From the IMG/VR virus record IMGVR_UViG_3300045988_113942: a DNA stretch of 48,224 nt; one strand, 5' to 3'. The stretch comes from a virus. This document shows, one piece after another, positions 9,279-48,067 of this stretch. Made by a program: the position numbers and the translations under genes. The stretch's first letter is position 1. Each line of letters begins with the position of its first letter. Below the pieces are notes generated by a model, which saw only the letters and a list, made by a program, of their open reading frames with translations, was not told the DNA's origin and searched no databases.

Positions 9279-9992
9279 TTAGAGCCAGCTACCGCCGGAG
9301 CGGTCGCGGACGCGGCCGATGAGGTGGAATGTCTGCATGTCGGCGCCGGAAATCGTCTCGTCGGGCACCTCCGGATTGAGCGACTGGATGAGCAGTCCAT
9401 TGATGAGGGAGCGCAGGACCTTGACCCTCATCTTGCCGTGAATCATGAATACGTAGACCTTGCCACTGATGATGTCGGTCGGCGTGCAGTCCACAAGGAT
9501 CTTGTCGCCGTCCCACAGGTAGGGCTCCATGCTGTCGCCGTGGACCTCGAAGGTCTTGCAGTTCTCGGGGTTGATCTGGTGAAGCTGAAACCACGAGCGG
9601 GGCTTGATGAAGCCGCATTCCTTGCCGTCAACTTCTTCAAAGACGGGGTTTTCGTTGCCGGGGCCAGCAGATGCTTGCACATGGTACTGAGGGATCACGA
9701 TGTAGTTAGGGTCTGGGAGCGCCGCGCCTTCGCCTGTGTCCTCATAGACCTGTACCGAGGTCGAGCGCATGGCGCCGATGCCTTCAGCGAGCCAGGACGC
9801 ATTGACGCCGAGGTACTCGGCTGCGCGTAGGGCGTGCTTGTAGTTGATTGCCTTCGTCTTTCCCGAGAACCAGTCCGTCATGGATGACGGACTCAGACCG
9901 CAGTGCTTTGCGAGGCCAGCCTTGTTCTTGTAAGGGGCGGTCAACTGGGCGGCCTCAAGAGCTTCCGCCAATCGTGTCGAGAGCGTGCTCAT
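9279..9992 (-). CDS. CI/LexA-like repressor (XRE HTH plus S24 peptidase domain)
   Basis: N-terminal HTH (KAGLAKHCGLSPSSMTDWFSGK). C-terminal S24 motifs VHGDSMEP and a later Lys (GKMRVKVL). Divergent from the cro-like gene. Confidence 0.9.
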   Translation of the reverse strand: MSTLSTRLAEALEAAQLTAPYKNKAGLAKHCGLSPSSMTDWFSGKTKAINYKHALRAAEYLGVNASWLAEGIGAMRSTSVQVYEDTGEGAALPDPNYIVIPQYHVQASAGPGNENPVFEEVDGKECGFIKPRSWFQLHQINPENCKTFEVHGDSMEPYLWDGDKILVDCTPTDIISGKVYVFMIHGKMRVKVLRSLINGLLIQSLNPEVPDETISGADMQTFHLIGRVRDRSGGSWL

Positions 9993-13130: not shown

Positions 13131-13344
13131 TGCTGACCGAGCCGCCAGAAGCGATGAATGGATCATGCGTGCGGCGATAGAGGAGAGAAAGCCAGAGGGA
13201 CCGAGCCCGGTTCTCGTGAGCTTGTGTTTGAACTGCGGAAAGGTCATTGAGAGAGTGCCCGCATCCGCTAATGGAGTGAAAAACGTTCGACGTTGGTGCT
13301 GTGCAGCCTGCCGCGATGAGTGGGAAGAGGAACATGAACGCTGA
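13123..13344 (+). CDS. Small C4 zinc-finger protein (TraR/DksA-like pattern)
   Basis: CLNCG...18 aa...CCAAC. Confidence 0.45.
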   Translation: MDDADRAARSDEWIMRAAIEERKPEGPSPVLVSLCLNCGKVIERVPASANGVKNVRRWCCAACRDEWEEEHER

Positions 13345-13756
13345 AGAAAAGATTCTCGAAGACCGTCTGATCAACTGGGGACGGTGGAACCAAGACCCGA
13401 AGCGACAGGGACGCTCTCCGCTCTGTGCCTTCATGGAAGCCGTGCCGAACGATGAGAAAGACAATGACGCGCCGGTCGAACGGCATGACGGACCGCCGCC
13501 GGTGGATGTCAGCGATGCCCTGCTTGTACAGAGGGCGTGGGAACGTCTTCCGGTTGCGCCGGAACGCTACAGAAAGGCGAAGATGGTTGTCGGTGTTGCA
13601 TACGCCTTCAACGTGCCTTTCATGGACCTGAAGCGCATCCTGAGGAAGTATCACCGCATCAATCTCCATGAGCGGGAGTTTGATGGCCTGGTGGAGATGG
13701 GTAGAAAGATGATTCGAAACAATCTTCTCAAAATCGAAGGCATGCCACCAAAATGA
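13334..13756 (+). CDS. Putative late-gene regulator (Q-antiterminator-like)
   Basis: The LEDRLINWGRWN motif and the position after rusA and before the terminase region mirror lambdoid Q. A strong hairpin lies 45 nt downstream. Confidence 0.45.
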   Translation: MNAEEKILEDRLINWGRWNQDPKRQGRSPLCAFMEAVPNDEKDNDAPVERHDGPPPVDVSDALLVQRAWERLPVAPERYRKAKMVVGVAYAFNVPFMDLKRILRKYHRINLHEREFDGLVEMGRKMIRNNLLKIEGMPPK

Positions 13757-13799: not shown

Positions 13800-13846
13800 G
13801 CCGTTTTCTGGGATAGGTGCATCTTCAGAAAACGGCATGCCTTTTT
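13800..13846 (+). terminator. Strong hairpin plus T-run downstream of the Q-like gene (tR'-like)
   Basis: 11-bp stem gccgttttctg / cagaaaacggc (13800-13836), then ggcatgcc ttttt. Confidence 0.5.
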
Positions 13847-13973
13847 GCGTAGGTGGGGTTGGATTCTAAAGAATGAGCCTGTTGGAGATTTCTTGCGGGC
13901 TTTTTTATTTAAAAACCACTTTATTATGCTGCTTCAATGATATGTGTGATTTTTTTCATGCTAAGAGGTAGGT

Positions 13974-14117
13974 GTGATTACTAAGGTGAGGAAGAAAATT
14001 TACTATCGAATGGCGACTTTCGAAGGTGTAGATGCTTCAATAACATTGCAGTCATTACTGAAAAAAAATCTTAGAGTCAGGGGTTGGCAGTCGACAACAA
14101 CAGCTGAATCCCGATGA
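13974..14117 (+). pseudogene. 5' fragment of the first AT-rich island gene, out of frame with 14161-14988 across an A8 tract
   Basis: AAGAGG lies 5 nt upstream of the GTG at 13974. The frame stays open to the TGA at 14115-14117. Removing one A from the A8 tract (14061-14068) joins it to the downstream frame, which is open from 14062. Confidence 0.45.
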
Positions 14118-14160
14118 AAAAACTTTTAGAGCCATCAATCAACATGCAGAATGCCAGGGG

Positions 14161-14988
14161 ATGACCTGTTGTCAGGTTATTCAAGTAGATCCAAATGCTT
14201 ATCAGCCAGTTATGATCTACGACAGTGGAACTCCTGAAGAGTATCGTATTGATGCAGTTTCGACGACCGAGCTAGGGAGAGAGGACTTAAAAAGTCATAG
14301 CGATTTTGTAAACTCTATGCTTTATTTCGGAGTGAAGGGGAATGAGGTTGTGGTTATGCCATCAAGTGCATTAACAATGCTTTCTCTAGAGCGGTATTTG
14401 GGATGGTTGCTTTTTGATAAAAAGCTTATTCCAGAGGACGCGAAATTCGCTTTGATAAAAACATTTACTCCTAATGTTGACGAATTGATACGGCAACATC
14501 CGGTTAGAAGCGTTCAAATTGGGGCGCCAATTCTTAACGAGAGTTCCTCTTTTGTTAACGAAGGGGAAAAGAAAGGAGAGTCTTCATTAAAAGACAATGT
14601 TACTGTTAAGGATGGAGTTTCTGTTAACGTAGATAGTTTAGGAGCAAAAATCCTTAAAATTTTGTTAAGAGAAGGTAATAGTCAAGACAGTTGGGTTAAT
14701 GATCTTTCTGATCAATCGAATTTGCAAGCTAAATTGGTGATTTCTTATTCTCGAAAAACAGATCCCGCTGGCCGAAAGCTTATGAATGTTATCGGTTCTA
14801 GTTTGCGTAATATTGATGATAGTGAGTTAATTCTTACATTAGATGGATGCGGCGTCTTAAGGGGAGAACAACTTAATTTGAGTAAAACTATCGATGTTGA
14901 GAAAACAACACGCGGTTTATATGCAACAGGTAATCTCTATAGAGACATGGTGGCGTGGTTAATAGAAATCCATGAAAAGAAGGAATGA
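14161..14988 (+). CDS. Soluble protein of the AT-rich two-gene cassette (RexA-like by architecture; family not established)
   Basis: 275-aa ORF at roughly 35-40% GC, against roughly 55-60% in the flanks. It is 4-nt coupled to the downstream 4-TM gene. Confidence 0.6.
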   Translation: MTCCQVIQVDPNAYQPVMIYDSGTPEEYRIDAVSTTELGREDLKSHSDFVNSMLYFGVKGNEVVVMPSSALTMLSLERYLGWLLFDKKLIPEDAKFALIKTFTPNVDELIRQHPVRSVQIGAPILNESSSFVNEGEKKGESSLKDNVTVKDGVSVNVDSLGAKILKILLREGNSQDSWVNDLSDQSNLQAKLVISYSRKTDPAGRKLMNVIGSSLRNIDDSELILTLDGCGVLRGEQLNLSKTIDVEKTTRGLYATGNLYRDMVAWLIEIHEKKE

Positions 14989-15518
14989 AAATGAGATCTT
15001 TCTTTACAAGTACACTATTTGTAGTTGTTTTGATATGTCTGTTGCTGTTGGGCGGTGGGTATCTTGGTTGGTTAATGAAAGACCTTTCTGATGCTACCAA
15101 AACGGGATTGACATATGGGTTTATTACATTTGCGATTTTGCCAATCTCTTTGTGCTTGTGGGGTGTTAAGGAATTTAATGCTGCATTTCCTAATGTTGCT
15201 CTTGAGTTGGATAAAAATGGTAGAAATCGTCTAGGTTGTTTAATTGATGATAAAATCGAAACGATTATTGTATTGGCTTTTTTTATAGTATTTATTCAAA
15301 TTATTCTGGCCTTTTGTTTGCTTTATTTCTTTGCTGGTAGTAACTACGAATTTGTAATTTTAGGGATTCTTTTTGGCGGTATATTGTCTTCTCTTGTGTA
15401 TGGTTTGTATGTTTGCTTTTCAGTTAGAAAGTTGGCCAGAACAGTTGAAGAGATTATTTCTAAAAGAGTCGCAAGAGAAAGACTTGAGAAGTATAAAAAA
15501 GAATTTGAAGACTCTTAG
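14985..15518 (+). CDS. Four-TM membrane protein of the AT-rich cassette (RexB-like topology)
   Basis: Hydrophobic helices at about aa 8-30, 41-60, 93-115 and 121-146, followed by a charged C-terminal tail. Confidence 0.7.
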   Translation: MKMRSFFTSTLFVVVLICLLLLGGGYLGWLMKDLSDATKTGLTYGFITFAILPISLCLWGVKEFNAAFPNVALELDKNGRNRLGCLIDDKIETIIVLAFFIVFIQIILAFCLLYFFAGSNYEFVILGILFGGILSSLVYGLYVCFSVRKLARTVEEIISKRVARERLEKYKKEFEDS

Positions 15519-15567
15519 CTAGGCAAGCTCGCCAGTGAAAACTGACGGGCTTTTCTATTTCGAAAGT

Positions 15568-15592
15568 GGCTACTGTCGTAGCCGCTTTTTTT
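15568..15592 (+). terminator. Rho-independent terminator closing the AT-rich island
   Basis: ggctac tgtc gtagcc followed by T7. A weaker hairpin lies at 15530-15556. Confidence 0.75.
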
Positions 15593-15957
15593 GTGTCCAG
15601 TGCGGCTGAGGCACGAGGCGGTCGTGGCTTTGGCAGCGTTCATTCTCCCGTCCTGCTCCTACGAAGAGCTATGCACCGAAGCGCACGACCGTTGTGAAGA
15701 GGAACGCGACCGTCATCAACCAGACGGTGAATCAGGTGCCGGCATCTTCCAACAGTGGCTTCTGGTCTACTGTTGCTGGATTGTTCGCGGGATCGATGGC
15801 AGGCAATGCTGTCTACGATGCTGTGACCGGTGACAAGAGCTAGGAGCCGGTGCAGGCTCAACCTCAGCCCGCTCAATAAAATTCCCAATAAAACGAAAGC
15901 CGTAGGAGCTACCAACTCTTGCGGCTTTCTCGTTCTACAACCTGAAGTAGAGGTCGT

Positions 15958-16569
15958 ATGACTAGAAAGATTGTACACAAGCCCGGCCAGATCGTTGGAT
16001 TGTTTGAGATCGTTGCATCAGCGGGATCAACGCCGCGTGGCGGGAAGCTCAGGTGCACCAACTGCGGCGCAGAGATCGTTCGACGTGGCACGTCCATTCG
16101 TACAGCTCTGAAGAACGGCGGACGATGGATCAACTGTGAATGCGGTGGGGCGGCGAGGCAGGATATATCCCGCTCCTTTGCTGAAGCAGCCCAGAAGGAT
16201 GTGATGGCTCAACAGCGTGAAGCTGAACGCCAGGCAAGACTCAGGAAGGATAACCGCCTTCTGTACTTCATCTGGGGAACTATGAAGGAGCGCTGCTACA
16301 ACGCATCAAACAAGAAGTTCAAGTACTACGGTGCACGTGGCATCTTCGTTTGCGATGAATGGCGCGATGACTTCGAGGTCTTCTGCACCTGGTCTCTCAA
16401 GCATGGTTATTGTCGAGGGCTCACCATTGATCGTATTGACAACGACCGCGAGTACAGCCCAGACAACTGCAGGTGGACGACTTACGCAGTGCAGAACAGC
16501 AATCAACGGCGAGGAAAGCGCGGGCCATACAAGCCGCGCAAGCATGCACGGGTCCTTCCGGGGGATTGA
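15958..16569 (+). CDS. HNH-type endonuclease / AP2-like DNA-binding protein next to the terminase genes
   Basis: YYGARGIFVCDEWRDDFEVF...LTIDRIDNDREYSPDNCRWTT...QNSN matches the phage HNH_3-like pattern. There is an N-terminal Cys cluster. Confidence 0.65.
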   Translation: MTRKIVHKPGQIVGLFEIVASAGSTPRGGKLRCTNCGAEIVRRGTSIRTALKNGGRWINCECGGAARQDISRSFAEAAQKDVMAQQREAERQARLRKDNRLLYFIWGTMKERCYNASNKKFKYYGARGIFVCDEWRDDFEVFCTWSLKHGYCRGLTIDRIDNDREYSPDNCRWTTYAVQNSNQRRGKRGPYKPRKHARVLPGD

Positions 16570-19147: not shown

Positions 19148-19735
19148 GTGGCACAACAGAAAACGCAGATCGAATACATCAACGTTGACGATCTGAAAGC
19201 GTACGAGCGAAACGCCCGCACGCACAGCGACGAGCAAATCAAGCAAGTCGCGGAATCGATCAAAGAATTCGGCTTTACAAACCCTGTTCTCATCGATGAA
19301 AACAACGAGCTCATTGCAGGCCACGGTCGAACATTGGCCGCGAAGTCGATCGGCATGAAGGAAGTGCCGGCGATCCGCCTGAAGGGGCTCACCGACGCGC
19401 AGAAGAAAGCACTGCGCATTGCCGACAACCAACTCGCCTTGAATTCGGGATGGGATGAAGAGCTTCTTCGCATCGAGCTCGGTGAACTTCAGGACGTTGA
19501 TTTCAATCTTGATGTCATGGGCTTTTCTGAGGAAGAGCTCGATGCACTTCTTCTGGCGGAAATCCCGGCCCAAATCGAAAACGATGAGACGGTCGACGAC
19601 GAGAGTCCTCAGAGTCAACTTGTCTTCAAGGTTACCTGCGAGACGCGAGATGAACTCGAAAGACTCAAGGAATTGACTGGAGCTGATGACAACAGTTGTC
19701 AAGCTTCCGTCCTCTTGGAGTACATCAAACAATAA
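19148..19735 (+). CDS. ParB-like nuclease (ParB/Srx N-terminal) domain protein with no methyltransferase domain
   Basis: YERNARTHSDEQI...FGFTNPVLID..NELIAGHGRTLAA...RIADNQLA. Confidence 0.8.
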   Translation: MAQQKTQIEYINVDDLKAYERNARTHSDEQIKQVAESIKEFGFTNPVLIDENNELIAGHGRTLAAKSIGMKEVPAIRLKGLTDAQKKALRIADNQLALNSGWDEELLRIELGELQDVDFNLDVMGFSEEELDALLLAEIPAQIENDETVDDESPQSQLVFKVTCETRDELERLKELTGADDNSCQASVLLEYIKQ

Positions 19736-39932: not shown

Positions 39933-41269
39933 TGGCTCTGAAAGAACAGGATATCGTCTTTACGACGACGGATGAGGCGGGTAACACCGTCATTCAGTTT
40001 CCGATTACGCGCGTCGAAAATGTTGAAGACGCCGTGCGTACTGTGAACAAGAAGAAGCCTGACAGCAATGGCGACATTCAGATCGATGTCGACATGAGTC
40101 ATCTGGCGACAAAAGATGAGCTGACGAAGGGCTTGGCGAATAAGCGAGATCACACGATCCAGATCGCCAACGCGGACCTGAACACGCTGCTTGATGACAA
40201 AACATGGGCCTGTAGTGGGACGCTGAAGAATACTCCGATTGCTTGCACGTTCTGCATTGTGCAGGCCTACGACACGGGGGCGCCCATCAGCGGGAACATC
40301 GTGCAAGTCTGCTACGTTCCGAACCAAACCGACAACACAGTCCGCACCTTTTGGCGCAACTGCAATAATGGGGTGACCTTCGGGAAGTGGAGCGAGCCCG
40401 GGGCCGTGAAGACGGTGAACAGCGTCGCGCCTGATGCTTCTGGCGAAGTGACGTTGCCGAACGCGACGACGAGTAAATTTGGTCTTGTGCGCCTTGCTGC
40501 CGAAGAGGACGTTTTGAACGAAGCTCCCCAGACAGTGGTCTGCACTCAGCTGATCTACGAAATCAACGAGTTCCGACGTAAGTCTACGGCCTACAACGTC
40601 GGCGATAAGGTGGACTGTGCCTTCCAGTACGAGCGCTTCCTCGAATGCACGAAAGCGGGGACTACGAGTGCGGACCTGCTCGATACGCGTAGTGTCACGC
40701 ATGGTCAGGTCATTGCAGACGGGACGGTTGAATGGACCGTTCGGACGCATGTGCGTTCGATCAATGGCTATTTTGCAGATGGAAATGGCGATGTGTCGCT
40801 TGCGGTAGCCGTCAAAAAGATTGTTTTGGATGCATATTTCCCTGTTGGTACGACCTATCTCTCTGCCGATGTAGCTTTCGACCCTAACGTCTCATGGGGC
40901 GGTACTTGGGTAAAGGTTGAAAATCGCTTCTTGCTTGGTGCGGGTAGTCGGGGAGTCGGAGCGACGGGTGGCGAAGAGATGCATACGCTTACTGAAAGCG
41001 AAATGCCGCGGCACAAACACGGTATTGGTAGCGTTAGTTCGACTGGTCAGTTTACCGCAACGCATTGTTGGAACGGCGATGCTACGAACGGGGCGTTTTC
41101 TCAAACCGCTAAAGGTAATGGTGCTGGTGGCGGTGCAGCTAATGGTGCAACGTATAAGTACAGTTTTTACACGACTAGTGGTGGCTCTGTAGCAGAATCT
41201 GGTAGTGGTAATGCTCATAACAACATGCCGCCGTATGAAGTCGTTAATATTTGGAAACGCACGGCTTAA
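39932..41269 (+). CDS. Tail fibre / receptor-binding protein with a C-terminal tail-collar-like domain
   Basis: FPVGTTYLS......WGGTWVKVENRFLLGAG....TGGEEMHTLTESEMPRHKH ... NAHNNMPPYEVVNIWKRTA. Confidence 0.8.
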   Translation: MALKEQDIVFTTTDEAGNTVIQFPITRVENVEDAVRTVNKKKPDSNGDIQIDVDMSHLATKDELTKGLANKRDHTIQIANADLNTLLDDKTWACSGTLKNTPIACTFCIVQAYDTGAPISGNIVQVCYVPNQTDNTVRTFWRNCNNGVTFGKWSEPGAVKTVNSVAPDASGEVTLPNATTSKFGLVRLAAEEDVLNEAPQTVVCTQLIYEINEFRRKSTAYNVGDKVDCAFQYERFLECTKAGTTSADLLDTRSVTHGQVIADGTVEWTVRTHVRSINGYFADGNGDVSLAVAVKKIVLDAYFPVGTTYLSADVAFDPNVSWGGTWVKVENRFLLGAGSRGVGATGGEEMHTLTESEMPRHKHGIGSVSSTGQFTATHCWNGDATNGAFSQTAKGNGAGGGAANGATYKYSFYTTSGGSVAESGSGNAHNNMPPYEVVNIWKRTA

Positions 41270-41290
41270 TTTTTAATGGGAGTAAAAGAC

Positions 41291-41956
41291 ATGAAAGATT
41301 TAGAGGTATTAGTTCAATTTGATCGGCAAACTATTTATGTCAATAAATACGGGCTTAGTTTTTCTTTTACGCGCGAACAAATGAAAAAATTGCCGACTGA
41401 TGTAGATGCCAATGAAATTATTGAAATTTGGTGGAATGTTAGTGGGCAATGTTCGTATCAGATTAAAGGGGAATCTACCGCAAATCATTTCGGCGAAGAA
41501 CACTATGATGACTATGTGAAGCCTTTCGTTGATTTGTGGCAAGCCGAAAAAGACAAACTCGAGAAAGAGCGTCAAGAGGCTGAGGCGGAATACAACAGTT
41601 TTCCGAATGTCAAAGCCAGAAAACTCGATGGACTCAACGCGGCGCATGAAACAGCAGAATCGGACGCTCACGTTTTCTCCTCGTTGGGATTTGAGATTGA
41701 TGCGAACGACAGAGCGAATCGCGACGTTGAAGGCATCCTTAGAACAATCGGCGATGGCACTACGATGTTTTGTGACTACAATAACGAGTTTCACGAGCTG
41801 AACAAGGCTCAGGTAGAAACACTTCAGGTCGAGATTATTCAGAATGCCCAGGCGCTCTACGCTCAAAAATGGGCGTATCGTACTCAGGTAGAGGCAGCAG
41901 AAAACGTTGATGAGCTTGATGCCATTGAGTTTACGTTCTCGCAAATGAGGTTTTGA
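41291..41956 (+). CDS. DUF4376-like fibre-associated protein (AT-rich)
   Basis: The C-terminal half (FEIDANDRANRDVEGIL...LNKAQVETLQVEIIQNAQALYAQKWAYRTQVEAA..VDELDAIEF) fits the DUF4376 pattern. Confidence 0.5.
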   Translation: MKDLEVLVQFDRQTIYVNKYGLSFSFTREQMKKLPTDVDANEIIEIWWNVSGQCSYQIKGESTANHFGEEHYDDYVKPFVDLWQAEKDKLEKERQEAEAEYNSFPNVKARKLDGLNAAHETAESDAHVFSSLGFEIDANDRANRDVEGILRTIGDGTTMFCDYNNEFHELNKAQVETLQVEIIQNAQALYAQKWAYRTQVEAAENVDELDAIEFTFSQMRF

Positions 41957-42092
41957 TGGGGCATCGTGTTCTATCAACTCCTCAAAAGTCTATAGGGAGG
42001 TGTGCCGACATAGGAAGGCTTCCCGCGCGAAGATGCACCGATTGTGCTTACGGATAGGTGATTTTGAGCGAACCACATAGAGATTAAGGCTG

Positions 42093-42881
42093 TCAATTTC
42101 TATTGACTGCAATCCCGATCGTTCGCTTGGTTAGGTCGTTCACCGTAGAATACGGCGTCCATTCGCCGGCTTTCAGAGCTTTGGAGTCAAAGCGCTGAAT
42201 GTAAATTTCACAACCGTCTCGTTCATAAACATCGGTGAAGTTGTAATTCTGGTCAGATTTTATGCACAAAATGACGGATAGTCGTCTTGCATTCAAGTTG
42301 CGTTTAACGCGGCAAGTGGCCTCGATTACGTCGTCAATATTTTCGACGTAATCGTAGTTGTCGTTGCCGCCTTCGATATACAGCAACATAACCTTGGCGT
42401 TGGTTGTCAATGAAAAGAAACGCTTCTGTCTTCTGGCGTACTTTTCCGTTACGCGCTGATAATCTTCTTCTGAGTCGTCTTTGAAGTCGTGGATGAATAG
42501 AGCGTTATTTTTGCGATTGAAAACATGAATGGTGCCTTCCGGTGCTTTTTGTTCCGTGTATTCCAGATCTTCGCGGTTCAACATTCCTGAGAAACGTTTC
42601 TCAATGAGTTCCAACTTTGTCAGGTACGGAAGGCCGGCAATCCAGTCGAATGGACCGCTGCATTTTCGAAGGTTGATCTCCCTAAGGATCGTGGCGGCCA
42701 AACAGTTACTACCGAGAGAGAAACAACTATCGAATGCATCGATACTGATCTTGTAGATGTACTGTTCCACCAGTGGACGGACGATTTTTGGGAAAAACTT
42801 TCGGTATTTCGAATAGGTGGATGCTAGGGTGGCGTTCAGATGTGGGATTCTAGTATGGAGGTTGGCGACATTTTGAAACAT
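42093..42881 (-). CDS. DUF1796-like (putative papain-like cysteine peptidase family) protein; reverse-strand moron
   Basis: FSLGSNCLAATILREINLRKCSGPFDWI fits the DUF1796 N-terminal signature. It is the only minus-strand gene inside the late region, and GC is lower than in the flanks. Confidence 0.6.
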   Translation of the reverse strand: MFQNVANLHTRIPHLNATLASTYSKYRKFFPKIVRPLVEQYIYKISIDAFDSCFSLGSNCLAATILREINLRKCSGPFDWIAGLPYLTKLELIEKRFSGMLNREDLEYTEQKAPEGTIHVFNRKNNALFIHDFKDDSEEDYQRVTEKYARRQKRFFSLTTNAKVMLLYIEGGNDNYDYVENIDDVIEATCRVKRNLNARRLSVILCIKSDQNYNFTDVYERDGCEIYIQRFDSKALKAGEWTPYSTVNDLTKRTIGIAVNRN

Positions 42882-42963
42882 ATTTGATATGGATGCAAAA
42901 ATGGCTCAAGGTTGTTGGATCAACCATGAGCAGAGCAGGGTACGTACACATAACTTTATCACA

Positions 42964-42983
42964 CCGCCTTCTGGCGGTTTTTT
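42964..42983 (+). terminator. Rho-independent terminator
   Basis: ccgcc ttct ggcgg tttttt. Confidence 0.7.
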
Positions 42984-42986
42984 CAT

Positions 42987-43244
42987 ATGTGGGATTTGAT
43001 TGTCAAGGCGCTGAAAGAGGCGCTGAAGGAAAAGGTGACTGAAATGACGAAAGAAGAAGTGAAGGAATGGCTCGACAAGATCGGCGTCAAGGTCGAGGAA
43101 GTGACGGATGAAATCATCGCCAAGGTGGAGGCTCAGAAGGCTCTGCTTGATACGGAGACCCGACGCAAGACTAGGCTCTTCTGGGGACCGGTTGGTTTTT
43201 TGGTTGGCGCGGTCGCCGGCTATGTCTGCGCGGCCTTTTTCTGA
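42987..43244 (+). CDS. Small tail-anchored membrane protein (lysis-cassette associated)
   Basis: Helical, charged N-terminus and a C-terminal TM segment LFWGPVGFLVGAVAGYVCAAFF. Confidence 0.5.
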   Translation: MWDLIVKALKEALKEKVTEMTKEEVKEWLDKIGVKVEEVTDEIIAKVEAQKALLDTETRRKTRLFWGPVGFLVGAVAGYVCAAFF

Positions 43245-43281
43245 GAACTGTGGGGTTTGCGTCCATAGACCAATATCAACT

Positions 43282-43313
43282 CCCTCGAGGATATTCCTCG
43301 GGGGATTTTTTTT
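43282..43313 (+). terminator. Rho-independent terminator
   Basis: 9-bp stem ccctcgagg / cctcggggg (one G-U pair) followed by T8. Confidence 0.7.
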
Positions 43314-43324
43314 ATGAGGAGAAG

Positions 43325-43642
43325 ATGCCAGAGAAAGAAGTGATAACGGAGACCCAGGCGCTTGCCGCGTCTGGGGGCTTCGCCGCCCTATGCGGTTGGC
43401 TGAACTATCTGCTCCTGATTGAGGAAGGGCGGGAGTTCTCGTGGGGAGGGATGTTCTTGCACTGCGCGATCAGTGCGGTGTGCGGTCTGATCTCTTACGA
43501 AATCTTGGCTTACGAAGGCTTCCCGCCGGGGTTTTGCGGAGCGCTGTCAGGCTTGGCAGGTTGGGGCGGCACACGAGTCTTGAGGCTGATAGAGATTGTC
43601 GCGACAAAGAGGGCGGGGATTAAAAAGGAGGATTTGGAATGA
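43325..43642 (+). CDS. Holin (three predicted TM segments)
   Basis: GAGGAG precedes the ATG at 43325. TM segments: SGGFAALCGWLNYLLLI, MFLHCAISAVCGLISYEIL and FCGALSGLAGWGG. ATGA-coupled to the endolysin. Confidence 0.7.
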   Translation: MPEKEVITETQALAASGGFAALCGWLNYLLLIEEGREFSWGGMFLHCAISAVCGLISYEILAYEGFPPGFCGALSGLAGWGGTRVLRLIEIVATKRAGIKKEDLE

Positions 43643-44103
43643 AGAACTTTTCTGAGTACCAGGCTGAGTCCGCGATGGACTTCATTGAGGCGTGGGAAGG
43701 GTGTCGCTTGCAGGCGTACAAGTGTCCTGCTGGCGTTTGGACGATCGGCGTGGGGCACACGAAGGGTGTGACGGAGCACGACGAGATCACGTATGAGCAG
43801 TCGAGGGAGCTACTTCGAAAGGACATCGAGGAGGTCAAGCGCGGGCTCGCGCCGTTCGTCAACATTCACGTGACGGAGGGGCAGTTCATTGCGCTGGTGA
43901 GCCTCGCTTTCAACGTAGGCGTCTCTTATGTCGTGCACAAGTGCCCGAAGCTTATGCAGGCGCTCAATGCGGGCGATGTCGAGGCCTGCGCTCATGAGTT
44001 CTTGGACATTGATTCTGCGAACGGCGTGAAGCTTCCTGGCTTGACACGCAGGCGTCAGTCAGAAGCCAGGCTTTTCTTAGGCGAGGGTGTCCCAGCGATA
44101 TAA
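43639..44103 (+). CDS. Endolysin, GH24 (T4/lambda-type lysozyme fold)
   Basis: IEAWEGCRLQAYKCPAGVWTIGVGHT contains the catalytic Glu context. Also GQFIALVSLAFNVG. Confidence 0.92.
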   Translation: MKNFSEYQAESAMDFIEAWEGCRLQAYKCPAGVWTIGVGHTKGVTEHDEITYEQSRELLRKDIEEVKRGLAPFVNIHVTEGQFIALVSLAFNVGVSYVVHKCPKLMQALNAGDVEACAHEFLDIDSANGVKLPGLTRRRQSEARLFLGEGVPAI

Positions 44104-44827: not shown

Positions 44828-46486
44828 TTAACCGGCAGTCGCTTTCGCCTGTTCAATGTTGCGGGTTTCACGGTATTCTTCAGCCTTCGCCAACGTGGTG
44901 AAGTGAACCTGAAGACCTAACTTCTGAACTTCGCTTTCGATGTCATCAAGTGAGACGCGGAAGAATTCCTTTCGCAAATTCACCTTGTTGATACGCTTCG
45001 GATCAAAGACCTCGTGAAGCTTGCGTTCAAGGTCAGGGGCGTTCTCGCTGTAGATCATGGCGTGAATGTCGAACGGGAACGGCACGGACGCATTGCTCAG
45101 TTCGTCAATTCGGTCCTCGGGATCGAGACGACGAGTCATGCCGATTTTGAACACGCGTTCGCCGAAGGAACCGATGTTCGAGATGACGTAAACGTGGCCG
45201 GCCTTCGTGAGCTCCGCCATGGACTGCGCACGTTTTGATTGCTCTTCGGCAGTACGAAGCTTTTCTTGAAGTTCTTGAAGTTGCTTTTCATACTTTTGGC
45301 GCTGACTTTCGGTAGCGTGCAAGAGCGCCTGTTCCATCTTTTCTTGTGCGGCACGCAGGCGAGCTTCTTCCTTCTCTGCTTGCTGTTTTGCTTTCTCAAA
45401 CTCAGCTTGAGCACGGGCTTCTTCACGCATGCGTTCGCGAATTGTTCGTTGCTCTTCCTGTTCCTTCTTCTTGAGCTCAAGCAAAACGGTGGCCCACTTG
45501 AGTTCATTCAGTCGGGATTCCAAGAATTCGTCCGTGATTCTGGCATTTCGGAAGGCGGCCCCTCCTTGGTTCACAAGCGCACATGCATCAAGGATTGCTT
45601 GCTTGCACTTCCCGAAATTTTCTCCACCCTTGAGCTTTGAGAGGATGCTGTCAACCTTGCCGTTGAATGCGTCAACGACGAAATTGCTGGCCGTCTGGCT
45701 TCGGTTTTGTTCTACGTAGTCACAAGCGCCGGCCTTGGAAATCTTCATCAAGCGCTTGGTGTTTGCTTTGGCTTCTTTGAACTTTTCACTGGCTTCCGCA
45801 AACCCGAAGTGTTCGGCAAGCTCATCAAGGAGTGTGTTGGCGGGAATCAAATATTCGTCGCCGTACCCTTCGATGACATTCTTCAACGCTTGAGCCGTTT
45901 TTTCTAAGTTGGTTACCTTGCGTTGAGCGTCGTCGACGATGGCAAGAGCCTGAAGGTTGGCTGTCTCGATAGCTTCACGTGCGGTCTGTTCGTGCTTTTC
46001 AGCTTCAGCTCGAATGCGGCGAATATCTCGTTCAAGTTCACGCGCATGCTGAACTTCGTCATTTGCGTCCTGAATGATTTTTTGGGCTTGCTTTTCTGCG
46101 TCTGAAATTTTCTGCTTACTCTCAGCAAGCTCTTTTTCGGAACGCTCAAAGTTGTTCCTGGCTCGCTCCTCGATGTCGGCCATCCGACTGTGAGCAAGCT
46201 TTTCAGCTTCGATCAGACGCTCCTGGGCAACTGTCTCGGCCTCGTCGATGCGAGATTGGATAGTCGTTTCATAATCACGAACCTTCTCTCTGAGGCCAGT
46301 AACAGTTTCATCGAGATTGTTGTTCGCCGTCTCATATTGGCCGCATTGTTCTTCCAAGGCCTTTTTCTGAGCGGTAAGTTCGCGGGTTTTCAAAATCCAT
46401 AGAAGAAGCCCGACTGGAATTAGAAAAAAGCTTAAAAAGCAAATGGCGATGAACCACCATCGATAAATGATTTTGGGTTTTGTCAT
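44828..46486 (-). CDS. Membrane-anchored coiled-coil protein with DUF4041-like region and a C-terminal T5orf172 (GIY-YIG-like) domain
   Basis: N-terminal TM WWFIAICFLSFFLIPVGLLLWIL, about 200 aa of heptad-rich E/K/Q sequence, then the C-terminus GHVYVISNIGSFGERVFKIGMTRRLDPEDRIDELSNASVPFPFDIHAMIYSENAPDLERKLH. Confidence 0.8.
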   Translation of the reverse strand: MTKPKIIYRWWFIAICFLSFFLIPVGLLLWILKTRELTAQKKALEEQCGQYETANNNLDETVTGLREKVRDYETTIQSRIDEAETVAQERLIEAEKLAHSRMADIEERARNNFERSEKELAESKQKISDAEKQAQKIIQDANDEVQHARELERDIRRIRAEAEKHEQTAREAIETANLQALAIVDDAQRKVTNLEKTAQALKNVIEGYGDEYLIPANTLLDELAEHFGFAEASEKFKEAKANTKRLMKISKAGACDYVEQNRSQTASNFVVDAFNGKVDSILSKLKGGENFGKCKQAILDACALVNQGGAAFRNARITDEFLESRLNELKWATVLLELKKKEQEEQRTIRERMREEARAQAEFEKAKQQAEKEEARLRAAQEKMEQALLHATESQRQKYEKQLQELQEKLRTAEEQSKRAQSMAELTKAGHVYVISNIGSFGERVFKIGMTRRLDPEDRIDELSNASVPFPFDIHAMIYSENAPDLERKLHEVFDPKRINKVNLRKEFFRVSLDDIESEVQKLGLQVHFTTLAKAEEYRETRNIEQAKATAG

Positions 46487-46856: not shown

Positions 46857-48020
46857 TCATTCCGTTGGAAGGATCGCATCCGCCCACTGTTGCATGATCG
46901 GGCGGCGTTGCTCAAGGAGGTCTGAGCGTTGGTAGGCCTGCACGACCTTGTCGCCCTTTACGTGAGCCAGAGCGCGCTCGGCAAGGGCCTCATGGATGAA
47001 GTTCTCCTCGCACCAGTCGCGGAACGTTGATCTGAAGCCGTGCATTGTGAAAGACTCGCCTGTAGCCTTCCGGATAAAAGCCCGAGGGCTGTCGATAACC
47101 ATCTCTTTGTCTGATCGTGGCGCAGGAAAGACGAGCTCAGACTTCCGTTCGCATCGTTCTAGGACTGCCAGTGCCTGACGTGAGAGCGGGACGCGGTGCT
47201 CAAGACCGCACTTCATCCTAGAGGCTGGGATCGTCCACGTCGCGCGCTGGATGTCGATCTCGTCCCATCGTGCGCAAAGGAACTCTTGCACGCGTGTAGC
47301 AGTGAGGATGCCGAAAAGGACGGCGCGAGACACGACAGAAGTCTTTTTCGCCGTCTCCGGTGCAAAACTTTTCAGAATTTCAAGAGGCATTGCTTCATGG
47401 TGCTTGACTTCGTGGACCTTTGAGATCGGCGGCAGGAAGAAAGCTAGCCCGTCTTTCCAAGTAGCAGGGTTTGTTTGTATGAGTTCTTCAGCGATTGCTT
47501 GAGAGAAGAGACTTTCGAGGCGGCCTCGTAGGCGGCTGGCTGTCTCTGGCTTTTCTGTCCAGATCGGTTTGAGGACTTCGAGGATGTCGCCACGCGTGAT
47601 GTCTTTGACGCGTAGTTGACCGAGGATCGGGACGGCATACGTCTCGATGGTCGAGGTCCACTGCTCAGCGTGCTTGGAATTCTTCCAACGCTTTACATCC
47701 TTGATGGTGGCGATGGCGCCAGGGTAGAAGTCTTTGAAAGTGATGTTTTCCTTACTGTCGGCTTCGTCGTGCTTCAAAGACATCGGGTCAATGCCGTCGG
47801 TGACCATTGCCATGATTTTGGCAGCACGTGCTTTGGCGGCGCTGATTGAGACACGAGAAGCTCCTCCGATGGACAAGTCCTTTCGGGTTCCGGCGAAGCG
47901 GTAGCGGACAACCCACTGGCGAGAAGACTCAGATCGAACCAACAGCATTAGACCGCCGCCGAGAGAGTAGCGACCGACAGGAAGTGTTAAGACGTTCTTC
48001 GAAGTTACTTGAACCTTCAC
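46857..48020 (-). CDS. int: Tyrosine integrase, P4-like (DUF4102-type N-terminus)
   Basis: GRYSLGGGLMLLVRSESSRQWVVRYRFAG is P4-int-like. The catalytic region is HGFRSTFRDWC...LAHVKGDKVVQAYQRSD. GGAGG lies 5 nt upstream of the GTG at 48020; the track ORF start at 48065 lies inside the arm repeat. Confidence 0.92.
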   Translation of the reverse strand: MKVQVTSKNVLTLPVGRYSLGGGLMLLVRSESSRQWVVRYRFAGTRKDLSIGGASRVSISAAKARAAKIMAMVTDGIDPMSLKHDEADSKENITFKDFYPGAIATIKDVKRWKNSKHAEQWTSTIETYAVPILGQLRVKDITRGDILEVLKPIWTEKPETASRLRGRLESLFSQAIAEELIQTNPATWKDGLAFFLPPISKVHEVKHHEAMPLEILKSFAPETAKKTSVVSRAVLFGILTATRVQEFLCARWDEIDIQRATWTIPASRMKCGLEHRVPLSRQALAVLERCERKSELVFPAPRSDKEMVIDSPRAFIRKATGESFTMHGFRSTFRDWCEENFIHEALAERALAHVKGDKVVQAYQRSDLLEQRRPIMQQWADAILPTE

Positions 48021-48041
48021 TTTTACCTCCGACGATGTACC

Positions 48042-48067
48042 AAAAAGAACCACCAAAAGAACCACCG
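48042..48067. repeat. Second copy of the 26-bp GAACCACC-containing repeat, just upstream of the int start
   Basis: Identical to 102-127. Confidence 0.5.

Follow-up and report, generated by a model that had tools for sequence, protein, structure and literature searches.

A Probable RexAB-Type Cassette with a Frameshifted First Gene in a Putative Sutterella wadsworthensis Prophage

Introduction

The Rex system of phage lambda was the first abortive-infection system to be discovered, and, to our knowledge, its trigger and its mechanism of activation are still unknown. Here we describe the analysis of a 48,224-nucleotide (nt) stretch of viral DNA (virus record IMGVR_UViG_3300045988_113942, hereafter the window) that carries a two-gene cassette at positions 13974-15518. 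Gene 1 codes for a soluble protein and gene 2 for a protein with four transmembrane (TM) helices. A first-pass annotation, made from the DNA letters and their translations, had proposed that the cassette is a RexAB-like abortive-infection or exclusion system. This proposal is supported by the predicted fold of gene 1, by the architecture of the pair, and by its genomic behavior, and the function is predicted from these. The cassette is probably a horizontally acquired moron in a temperate myovirus prophage of Sutterella wadsworthensis, encoding a two-component system of the RexAB type.

The rexA and rexB genes of lambda (PF15969/PF15968; structure 8TWQ) are temperate-phage cargo, with the gene for the soluble protein first and the gene for the 4-TM protein immediately downstream. 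RexA is a hinged two-domain protein for which a domain rearrangement has been reported. A globular domain in two parts (residues 1-139 and 248-279) is interrupted by a dimerization domain (residues 143-234), and the globular domain is composed of a seven-stranded sheet and helices, closed by a C-terminal helix (PMC11077077).

RexABpp from prophage P1 of P. putida (PP_5643/PP_5644) is likewise prophage cargo. Its sensor of ~37 kDa has no BLAST similarity to RexA, and RexA is its best structural neighbor; its partner has four TM helices and is at least 181 amino acids (aa) long. Defense requires both genes, and overexpression of the sensor leads to effector-dependent growth arrest and membrane damage (PMC12894663). 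The Sucellos system (SclA/SclB), from a cassette of the V. cholerae superintegron that carries its own promoter, is structurally RexAB-like and is not matched by Pfam domains; both of its genes are required, and SclB is a predicted membrane pore (bioRxiv 10.1101/2024.07.02.601686). Sucellos homologues are frequent in prophages, have been reported in a P4-like satellite, and are reported by DefenseFinder in later papers. Since RexABpp and Sucellos are both Pfam-negative, structurally RexAB-like pairs that have been validated experimentally, the kind of system considered here is already known. The RexABpp report also describes the pairs gp30/31 of Sbash, gp44/43 of CarolAnn, and gp30/31 of Butters, in which prophage-encoded cytosolic and membrane proteins exclude heterotypic phages and some of which adjoin the immunity repressor gene (PMC12894663). 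These actinobacteriophage pairs act in Gram-positive hosts, the logic of the Butters pair is reversed, and their comparison with the cassette, like that of Sucellos, is by description and not by sequence.

Results and Discussion

Gene 1 Is a Single Gene with a Predicted RexA Fold

The cassette contains open reading frames (ORFs) at 13974-14117 (47 aa, GTG start), 14161-14988 (275 aa), and 14985-15518 (177 aa). The first-pass annotation had given gene 1 either as 275 aa from the ATG at 14161 or as about 337 aa if joined to the upstream fragment. These ORFs exist, and the first two can now be corrected to one 337-aa gene on the + strand (13974-14988) that is preceded by the Shine-Dalgarno sequence AAGAGG at 13963-13968, 5 nt upstream of the GTG. 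Frame 0 ends at a stop codon at 14115-14117, and the remainder of the gene is read in the +1 frame to the TGA at 14986-14988. The site of the frameshift is a run of eight adenines (A8) at 14061-14068, in codons 30-32; intact alleles have seven (A7), and five metagenome contigs with A7 are otherwise identical to the window over 300 nt. The 275-aa ORF alone matches PHROG 3482 (function unknown) from profile position 71. When the 47-aa fragment is joined to the +1 frame at the A run, the resulting 337-aa sequence covers positions 8-340 of the 344 in phrog_3482 with an E value of 8e-53, and it is identical to protein P0308, which is found on 19 contigs. The 47-aa and 275-aa ORFs belong to a single gene that a +1 frameshift has divided. 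In the window this gene is a pseudogene or an OFF allele: probably it is OFF, or the full-length protein is made at a low level by slippage on the A run. It may be speculated that a +1 slip on the A run, or the loss of one A in transcription, restores the frame.

With clustering at 50% identity, an exhaustive profile search with gene 1 recovered at least 920 clusters at E <= 1e-3, of which 232 reached E <= 1e-30; the first number is a lower bound on the size of the family. Nearly all members are 315-360 aa in length. Family member P0028 has an unrelated C-terminal extension of ~90 aa; its gene call, on a short contig, is probably chimeric or frameshifted.

The intact gene 1 protein was modeled with AlphaFold2 (predicted local distance difference test score (pLDDT) of 76, predicted template-modeling score of 0.72). 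The first-pass annotation had suggested structure prediction followed by a Foldseek search as a check, and lambda RexA was found to be the sole significant match in the PDB (E <= 0.001). Chains B and A of 8TWQ were matched with E values of 1.3e-4 and 3e-4, a probability of 1.00, and 307-357 aligned columns; the next PDB match has an E value of 0.12. Against BFVD, the same model matched five uncharacterized phage proteins with E values from 1e-7 to 2e-11. In the model, residues 1-150 hold seven strands and helices; an alpha/beta domain follows at 157-310, of which residues 190-216 are a disordered insert; and residues 317-335 form a long C-terminal helix. By comparison with the published description rather than by superposition, this order of elements appears to fit the topology of RexA. 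The model supports a RexA fold for gene 1, in a protein that is longer than RexA (337 aa vs 279 aa) and that carries a disordered insert of ~30 aa.

Gene 2 Is the Predicted Membrane Partner

The first-pass annotation had described gene 2 as a 177-aa protein, coupled to gene 1 through an ATGA overlap at 14985-14988. The overlap exists, but the most likely start is the ATG at 14991, which lies 2 nt beyond the gene 1 stop codon and gives a protein of 175 aa (14991-15518, + strand). The sequence AGGA at 14981-14984 provides a 6-nt spacer to this ATG, all homologues begin at its position, and gene callers report 175 aa. The four hydrophobic segments and the charged C-terminal tail were seen as described there. 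The protein, a putative effector, consists of a short basic N-terminus, TM1, TM2, a charged cytoplasmic loop of ~32 aa, TM3, a short loop, TM4, and a highly charged helix or tail of ~38 aa. From the positive-inside rule, an N-in/C-in topology is predicted. Lambda RexB has the same N-in/C-in layout of four helices, with a basic loop between TM2 and TM3, but it is smaller (144 aa), its loop is shorter, and it has almost no tail. The cassette shares its gene order and the 4-TM layout with lambda rexAB, and both of its proteins are larger than RexA and RexB.

Conservation and Location of the Pair

In every complete locus examined, a 4-TM partner of 167-208 aa overlaps or abuts the gene 1 homologue, down to an identity of 25%. 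These loci comprise L006, L008-L014, 12 metagenome loci, gp27/gp26 of Stx2a_WGPS2, Acinetobacter phage phi1_092021, and the P0012/P0042 branch. In L009-L015 and in phi1_092021, a cI/LexA-like repressor gene on the same strand immediately precedes the pair, which is the cI-rexA-rexB arrangement of lambda. The gene 1 homologue of phi1_092021 (27-33% identical) carries the annotation "DefenseFinder protein", an indirect hint of a possible relation to Sucellos. The Damona system was considered as the origin of this label and was ruled out, since Damona has DUF6602 and the gene 1 family is without a Pfam match.

Other relatives occupy other slots. In Stx2a_WGPS2, an Stx2a phage of E. coli O157:H7 (L027, NC_049941.1, 15083-16646), and in Shigella phage SfIV (L026, gp49/gp48), the pair lies beside Q on the opposite strand, in the former a few kb from stx2. 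A 1.7-kb query from the Stx2a phage was contained to >= 80% in 14 of 5,426 complete E. coli genomes, where the RefSeq label is "hypothetical protein". The partner gene of SfIV is short (108 aa), with an IS transposase gene directly after it. In the P0012/P0042 branch (L028-L032), a 44%-identical pair immediately follows the integrase gene of an AlpA-type island beside pheT-ihfA, with an AAA_15/AAA_21 ATPase gene a few kb away, and this setting looks like a defense island. At another locus (L040), a gene for a 609-aa ATPase-like protein lies just downstream. The pairing is conserved across a very large unannotated family that is found in prophages, satellites or islands, and defense-rich neighborhoods.

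The repressor-adjacent copies bear on a different role, in which the pair would act in the prophage's own life cycle, for example by tilting the lysogeny-lysis switch or assisting induction, as lambda RexA does without RexB. Many relatives have the pair co-oriented with, and beside, a cI-like repressor gene, and the RexA structural report describes nonspecific DNA binding by RexA and a bias of the bistable switch (PMC11077077). However, in the window, in phage SfIV and the Stx2a phage, and in the island where it follows an integrase gene, the pair is far from the immunity region, and the cassette behaves as mobile cargo with a foreign base composition. Gene 1 is also unneeded for prophage maintenance, since a functional copy is missing from a large minority of cassettes (see below). 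We regard a role confined to the life cycle of the prophage as unlikely.

The cassette was also compared with the pairs that have been validated experimentally. PP_5643 of RexABpp reaches RexA by HHpred (98%), whereas the gene 1 family fails to do so by hhalign. The terminal peptides of PP_5643, as deduced from published primers (MHRTATFV... and ...VYNKQSRLMV), are unlike the conserved termini of the gene 1 family, and none of the 150 best representatives matched them; this comparison is of peptides only. Exact-match scans of viral and metagenome contigs for the PP_5643/PP_5644 primer sequences returned nothing. Salmonella prophages are reported to carry Sucellos often, but the phage-collection matches to the gene 1 family include no Salmonella phage.

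Alleles of Gene 1

Contigs that were retrieved by way of gene 2 carry no bias toward either state of gene 1, and seven of these were informative. Four (L017, L020, L021, and L023) carry A8, as does the window, two (L019 and L022) have A7 and an intact gene, and one (L018) has A7 together with two nonsense mutations, 14155 C>T and 14585 C>A. The A7 allele was also found in L001-L005. The relatives noted for this polymorphism are L001-L005, L017-L023, and L033. Two differences separate three haplotypes of the cassette: a 3-nt indel at 14586-14588 (Leu), located in the disordered insert of the modeled gene 1 protein, and an 18-nt tandem duplication at 14674/14675 (NSQDSC-NSQDSW), located in a low-confidence part of that model.

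The number of contigs for each haplotype was taken from cluster membership, with 15 of the 39 cluster members listed. The window-type haplotype was found with intact proteins of 337 aa (19 contigs) and 325 aa (2 contigs) and with truncated proteins of 275 aa (7 and 3 contigs). For the 3-nt deletion haplotype, intact proteins of 336 aa (3 and 2 contigs) and 324 aa (4 contigs) stand beside truncated proteins of 274 aa (3 contigs). The 18-nt duplication haplotype has intact proteins of 343 aa (14 contigs) and 331 aa (3 contigs), truncated proteins of 281 aa (18 and 2 contigs), and a nonsense form on 3 further contigs. Among the listed contigs, gene 1 is intact on roughly 47 and disrupted on 36 (33 truncated and 3 nonsense). 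A DNA-level check of five truncated calls found A8 in each. All contigs that cover gene 2 have it intact.

The occurrence of both alleles on all three haplotypes implies recurrent slippage, with at least three independent events, and the frequency of A8 is far too high for an Illumina assembly error. Either the putative sensor is costly and is repeatedly lost at a mutational hotspot, or the tract is an ON/OFF switch. The latter is a tentative proposal, which we consider possible and somewhat doubtful: the A7/A8 tract would be a reversible, selected contingency switch by which Sutterella lysogens toggle a costly sensor while always keeping the effector. We know of no description of phase variation in an abortive-infection sensor. 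Split gene 1 homologues next to an intact 4-TM partner were also noted in other lineages. The gene in L015 (4179-5191) is split by a 1-nt deletion, and L047 and L048 differ at T6/T7 and G4/G5 runs; these splits may be real or may be low-coverage assembly errors.

The repeated inactivation of gene 1 beside an intact gene 2 would be expected if gene 1 were dangerous, and a reversed logic of this sort is described for gp30/gp31 of mycobacteriophage Butters (PMC12894663): the toxic or antiviral effector would be the cytosolic RexA-fold protein, which the membrane protein only restrains or sequesters. The same paper, however, indicates that excess RexA triggers RexB, so that the pattern is also expected under a lambda-type logic, and that the membrane protein is the effector in most of the characterized Rex-type pairs (PMC12894663). 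The high conservation of gene 2, its glycine-rich TM helices, and its long charged tail are also more like those of an effector than those of a tether. A reversed arrangement in this cassette is thus improbable.

The same alleles could be taken to mean that gene 2 alone matters in this lineage, for example in superinfection exclusion or host modulation, with gene 1 as a remnant in decay. All relatives have an identical or nearly identical gene 2, while gene 1 often carries the A8 frameshift or nonsense mutations. RexA-independent activities have been reported for lambda RexB. But intact copies of gene 1 are the majority of the listed contigs, the disruptions are nearly all at one reversible homopolymer rather than scattered as in decay, and both genes are always found together across the wider family. 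We therefore place little weight on gene 2 acting alone, and retain the reading of the cassette as a two-component system.

The Cassette within Its Prophage

The first-pass annotation had called the cassette foreign in composition, bracketed by terminators, and separate from the repressor gene, and all three statements were borne out. The guanine-cytosine (GC) content of the cassette is 34-41%, compared with 55-58% in the flanks; the drop spans exactly 13.8-15.6 kb and is the lowest-GC stretch across the window. Upstream, RNA folding predicts a terminator-like hairpin at 13800-13847 on the + strand, with a long stem (13800-13836) followed by AUGCCUUUUUG, and a second at 13875-13908 (+), at the GC boundary, with an 8-bp GC-rich stem followed by U6 (z-score of -3.06). 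Downstream, there is a terminator-like hairpin at 15520-15561 (+; z-score of the region, -3.73) and another at 15562-15592 (+), with a 12-bp stem followed by U7, where the GC content returns to the level of the backbone. With two such U-run hairpins on each side, "bracketed by terminators" is a fair description. The cassette is one operon of two tightly coupled genes with a foreign base composition and its own terminators.

The small terminase protein of the window is identical to one in a metagenome-assembled genome of Sutterella wadsworthensis, and the tail sheath protein clusters with Sutterella-named proteins. No match was found by megablast of the cassette, or of 24 kb of the phage, to the phage collection, or of the cassette to complete E. 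coli genomes. The gene order in the window runs from a cI-like repressor (9279-9992, - strand), about 4 kb from the cassette, through O-like and DnaC-like replication genes, RusA, and a weakly Q-like gene (13301-13756) to the cassette, and then through an HNH endonuclease gene, the small and large terminase genes, and a ParB-like gene to the portal gene. The integrase gene is at 46857-48065. The slot between the Q-like gene and the HNH and terminase genes is unlike that of lambda rexAB, which lies downstream of cI and is transcribed together with it in the lysogen, and the copy of the cassette in the window, unlike lambda rexAB, is frameshifted. The location had been described as Q-proximal; the cassette does follow the Q-like gene, which is, however, only weakly Q-like (phrog_79, E value of 1e-4).

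Because lambdoid phages place their lysis genes after Q, and because the TM helices and charged C-terminal tail of gene 2 resemble those of many holins, a lysis module was considered, together with a Kiwa-like (KwaAB) system. Kiwa pairs a 4-TM protein with a soluble protein of ~310 aa. The holin and endolysin genes of this prophage are found elsewhere, however, at 43250-43642 and 43639-44103, and the cassette is thus not the lysis module; SfIV and the Stx2a phage also have separate lysis genes, with the pair on the opposite strand. The order kwaA-kwaB is the reverse of the soluble-then-TM order found here, a PADLOC scan of ten distant family proteins gave nothing meaningful and no Kiwa, and neither DUF4868 nor DUF4747 was found by Pfam in 147 members of the gene 1 family. 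Both of these explanations are rejected as highly improbable.

Several neighboring features were also noted. Between the cassette and the HNH gene, at 15694-15843, there is a 49-aa ORF that contains a hydrophobic segment rich in glycine (GLFAGSMAGNAVYDAV). The HNH endonuclease gene (15958-16569) immediately precedes the genes for the small and large terminase, and such an association of HNH and terminase genes in packaging is usual. A gene with a ParB-like nuclease domain (19148-19735) comes directly after the large terminase gene. The interval from the cassette to the small terminase gene is variable in relatives, which have calls of 67, 79, or 84 aa instead and in some of which the HNH gene is missing. 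A strong PD-Lambda-1 homologue of 552 aa (PADLOC PDLC03976, E value of 8e-111; also phrog_1847) is encoded at 44828-46486 on the - strand, between the lysis genes and the integrase gene, and the prophage therefore carries a second defense cargo. A milder low-GC stretch (45-48%) at 40800-43200, after the tail-fiber genes, may be another moron; it contains a 262-aa ORF (42093-42881, - strand) with no match in PHROG or PADLOC.

Evidence against a RexAB-Type System

Several results weigh against the RexAB reading, beginning with those on sequence. The first-pass annotation had suggested profile searches against the RexA, RexB, Kiwa, and DUF4747 families, and no match was obtained with Pfam, PADLOC, NCBIfam, or hhalign. 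Neither the 275-aa nor the 337-aa version of gene 1 matched Pfam (which includes RexA PF15969, RexB, DUF4868, and DUF4747) even at E <= 10, gene 2 matched no Pfam family, including RexB PF15968, and 147 diverse members of the gene 1 family gave nothing meaningful there, including no PF15969. PADLOC 2.0 and NCBIfam recognized neither protein of the cassette. Sequence searches of the PDB with three profiles returned no match, and 8TWQ was missed by the 17- and 147-sequence profiles. With hhalign, the probability for gene 1 was <= 0.5% both against lambda RexA alone and against a 32-sequence alignment (lambda RexA and 31 homologues), and that for gene 2 against RexB was 0.2%, which is not significant. 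The profile-profile comparison for gene 1 was run locally, with 169 sequences vs the 32-sequence RexA alignment, and was not significant. Over all these searches, no sequence similarity of the cassette proteins to lambda RexA or RexB was detected. The first-pass annotation had listed short motifs shared with RexA; the lambda sequence that it gave was accurate, and a permissive profile alignment is colinear through the motifs (residues 9-335 of gene 1 vs 7-273 of RexA) but is not statistically significant (0.5%).

The structural evidence has weak points as well. The Foldseek template-modeling scores for RexA are low (0.24-0.37), with root-mean-square deviations of 17-18 A, and the match depends on 3Di similarity that is local, in a protein whose two domains are hinged. 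For gene 2, the AlphaFold2 model is weak (pLDDT of 62), and this low-confidence model has no significant Foldseek neighbor in BFVD. A scan for sigma-70-like promoters upstream of gene 1 gave no candidate on the + strand, and the cassette in the window is not beside the repressor gene. Finally, the putative sensor gene is frameshifted in the window and broken on ~40% of the listed contigs, and the intact pair is therefore possibly costly or dispensable. By sequence, the two proteins fall outside the Pfam RexA and RexB families; gene 1 agrees with RexA in its predicted fold, and the pair agrees with RexAB in its architecture. The proposal of a RexAB-like system is accordingly upheld by the fold, the architecture, and the context in distant relatives, but by no sequence-level link to RexA or RexB.

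Proposed Mechanism

By analogy with lambda RexAB, RexABpp, and Sucellos, the product of gene 1 would be a cytoplasmic sensor, probably dimeric and DNA-binding, that detects the replication or recombination complexes, or the proteins, of an infecting phage. The triggered sensor would then activate an oligomeric channel or pore made of the gene 2 product. Opening of such a channel might collapse the membrane potential, and the cell would be arrested or killed before the invader finishes its cycle.

Conclusions

The initial observation has been confirmed in part, and its interpretation as a RexAB-like system with a predicted defense function is supported by fold, architecture, and genomic behavior. 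The evidence is compatible with a widespread (at least 920 clusters) and essentially unannotated branch of RexA-fold/4-TM systems. Its members span gut Sutterella, Stx2a phages of E. coli O157, Shigella phage SfIV, and Acinetobacter prophages, and annotation by Pfam, NCBIfam, PADLOC 2.0, and PGAP misses these pairs, which are labeled "hypothetical protein". If the reading is correct, then Rex-type immunity would be far more common than the Pfam families suggest, and a large, sequence-invisible family of RexA-fold/4-TM pairs would greatly widen the material for comparison. The natural A7 and A8 forms of gene 1 would provide ready ON and OFF alleles with which to weigh the costs of a Rex-type sensor against its benefits in a commensal of the human gut.

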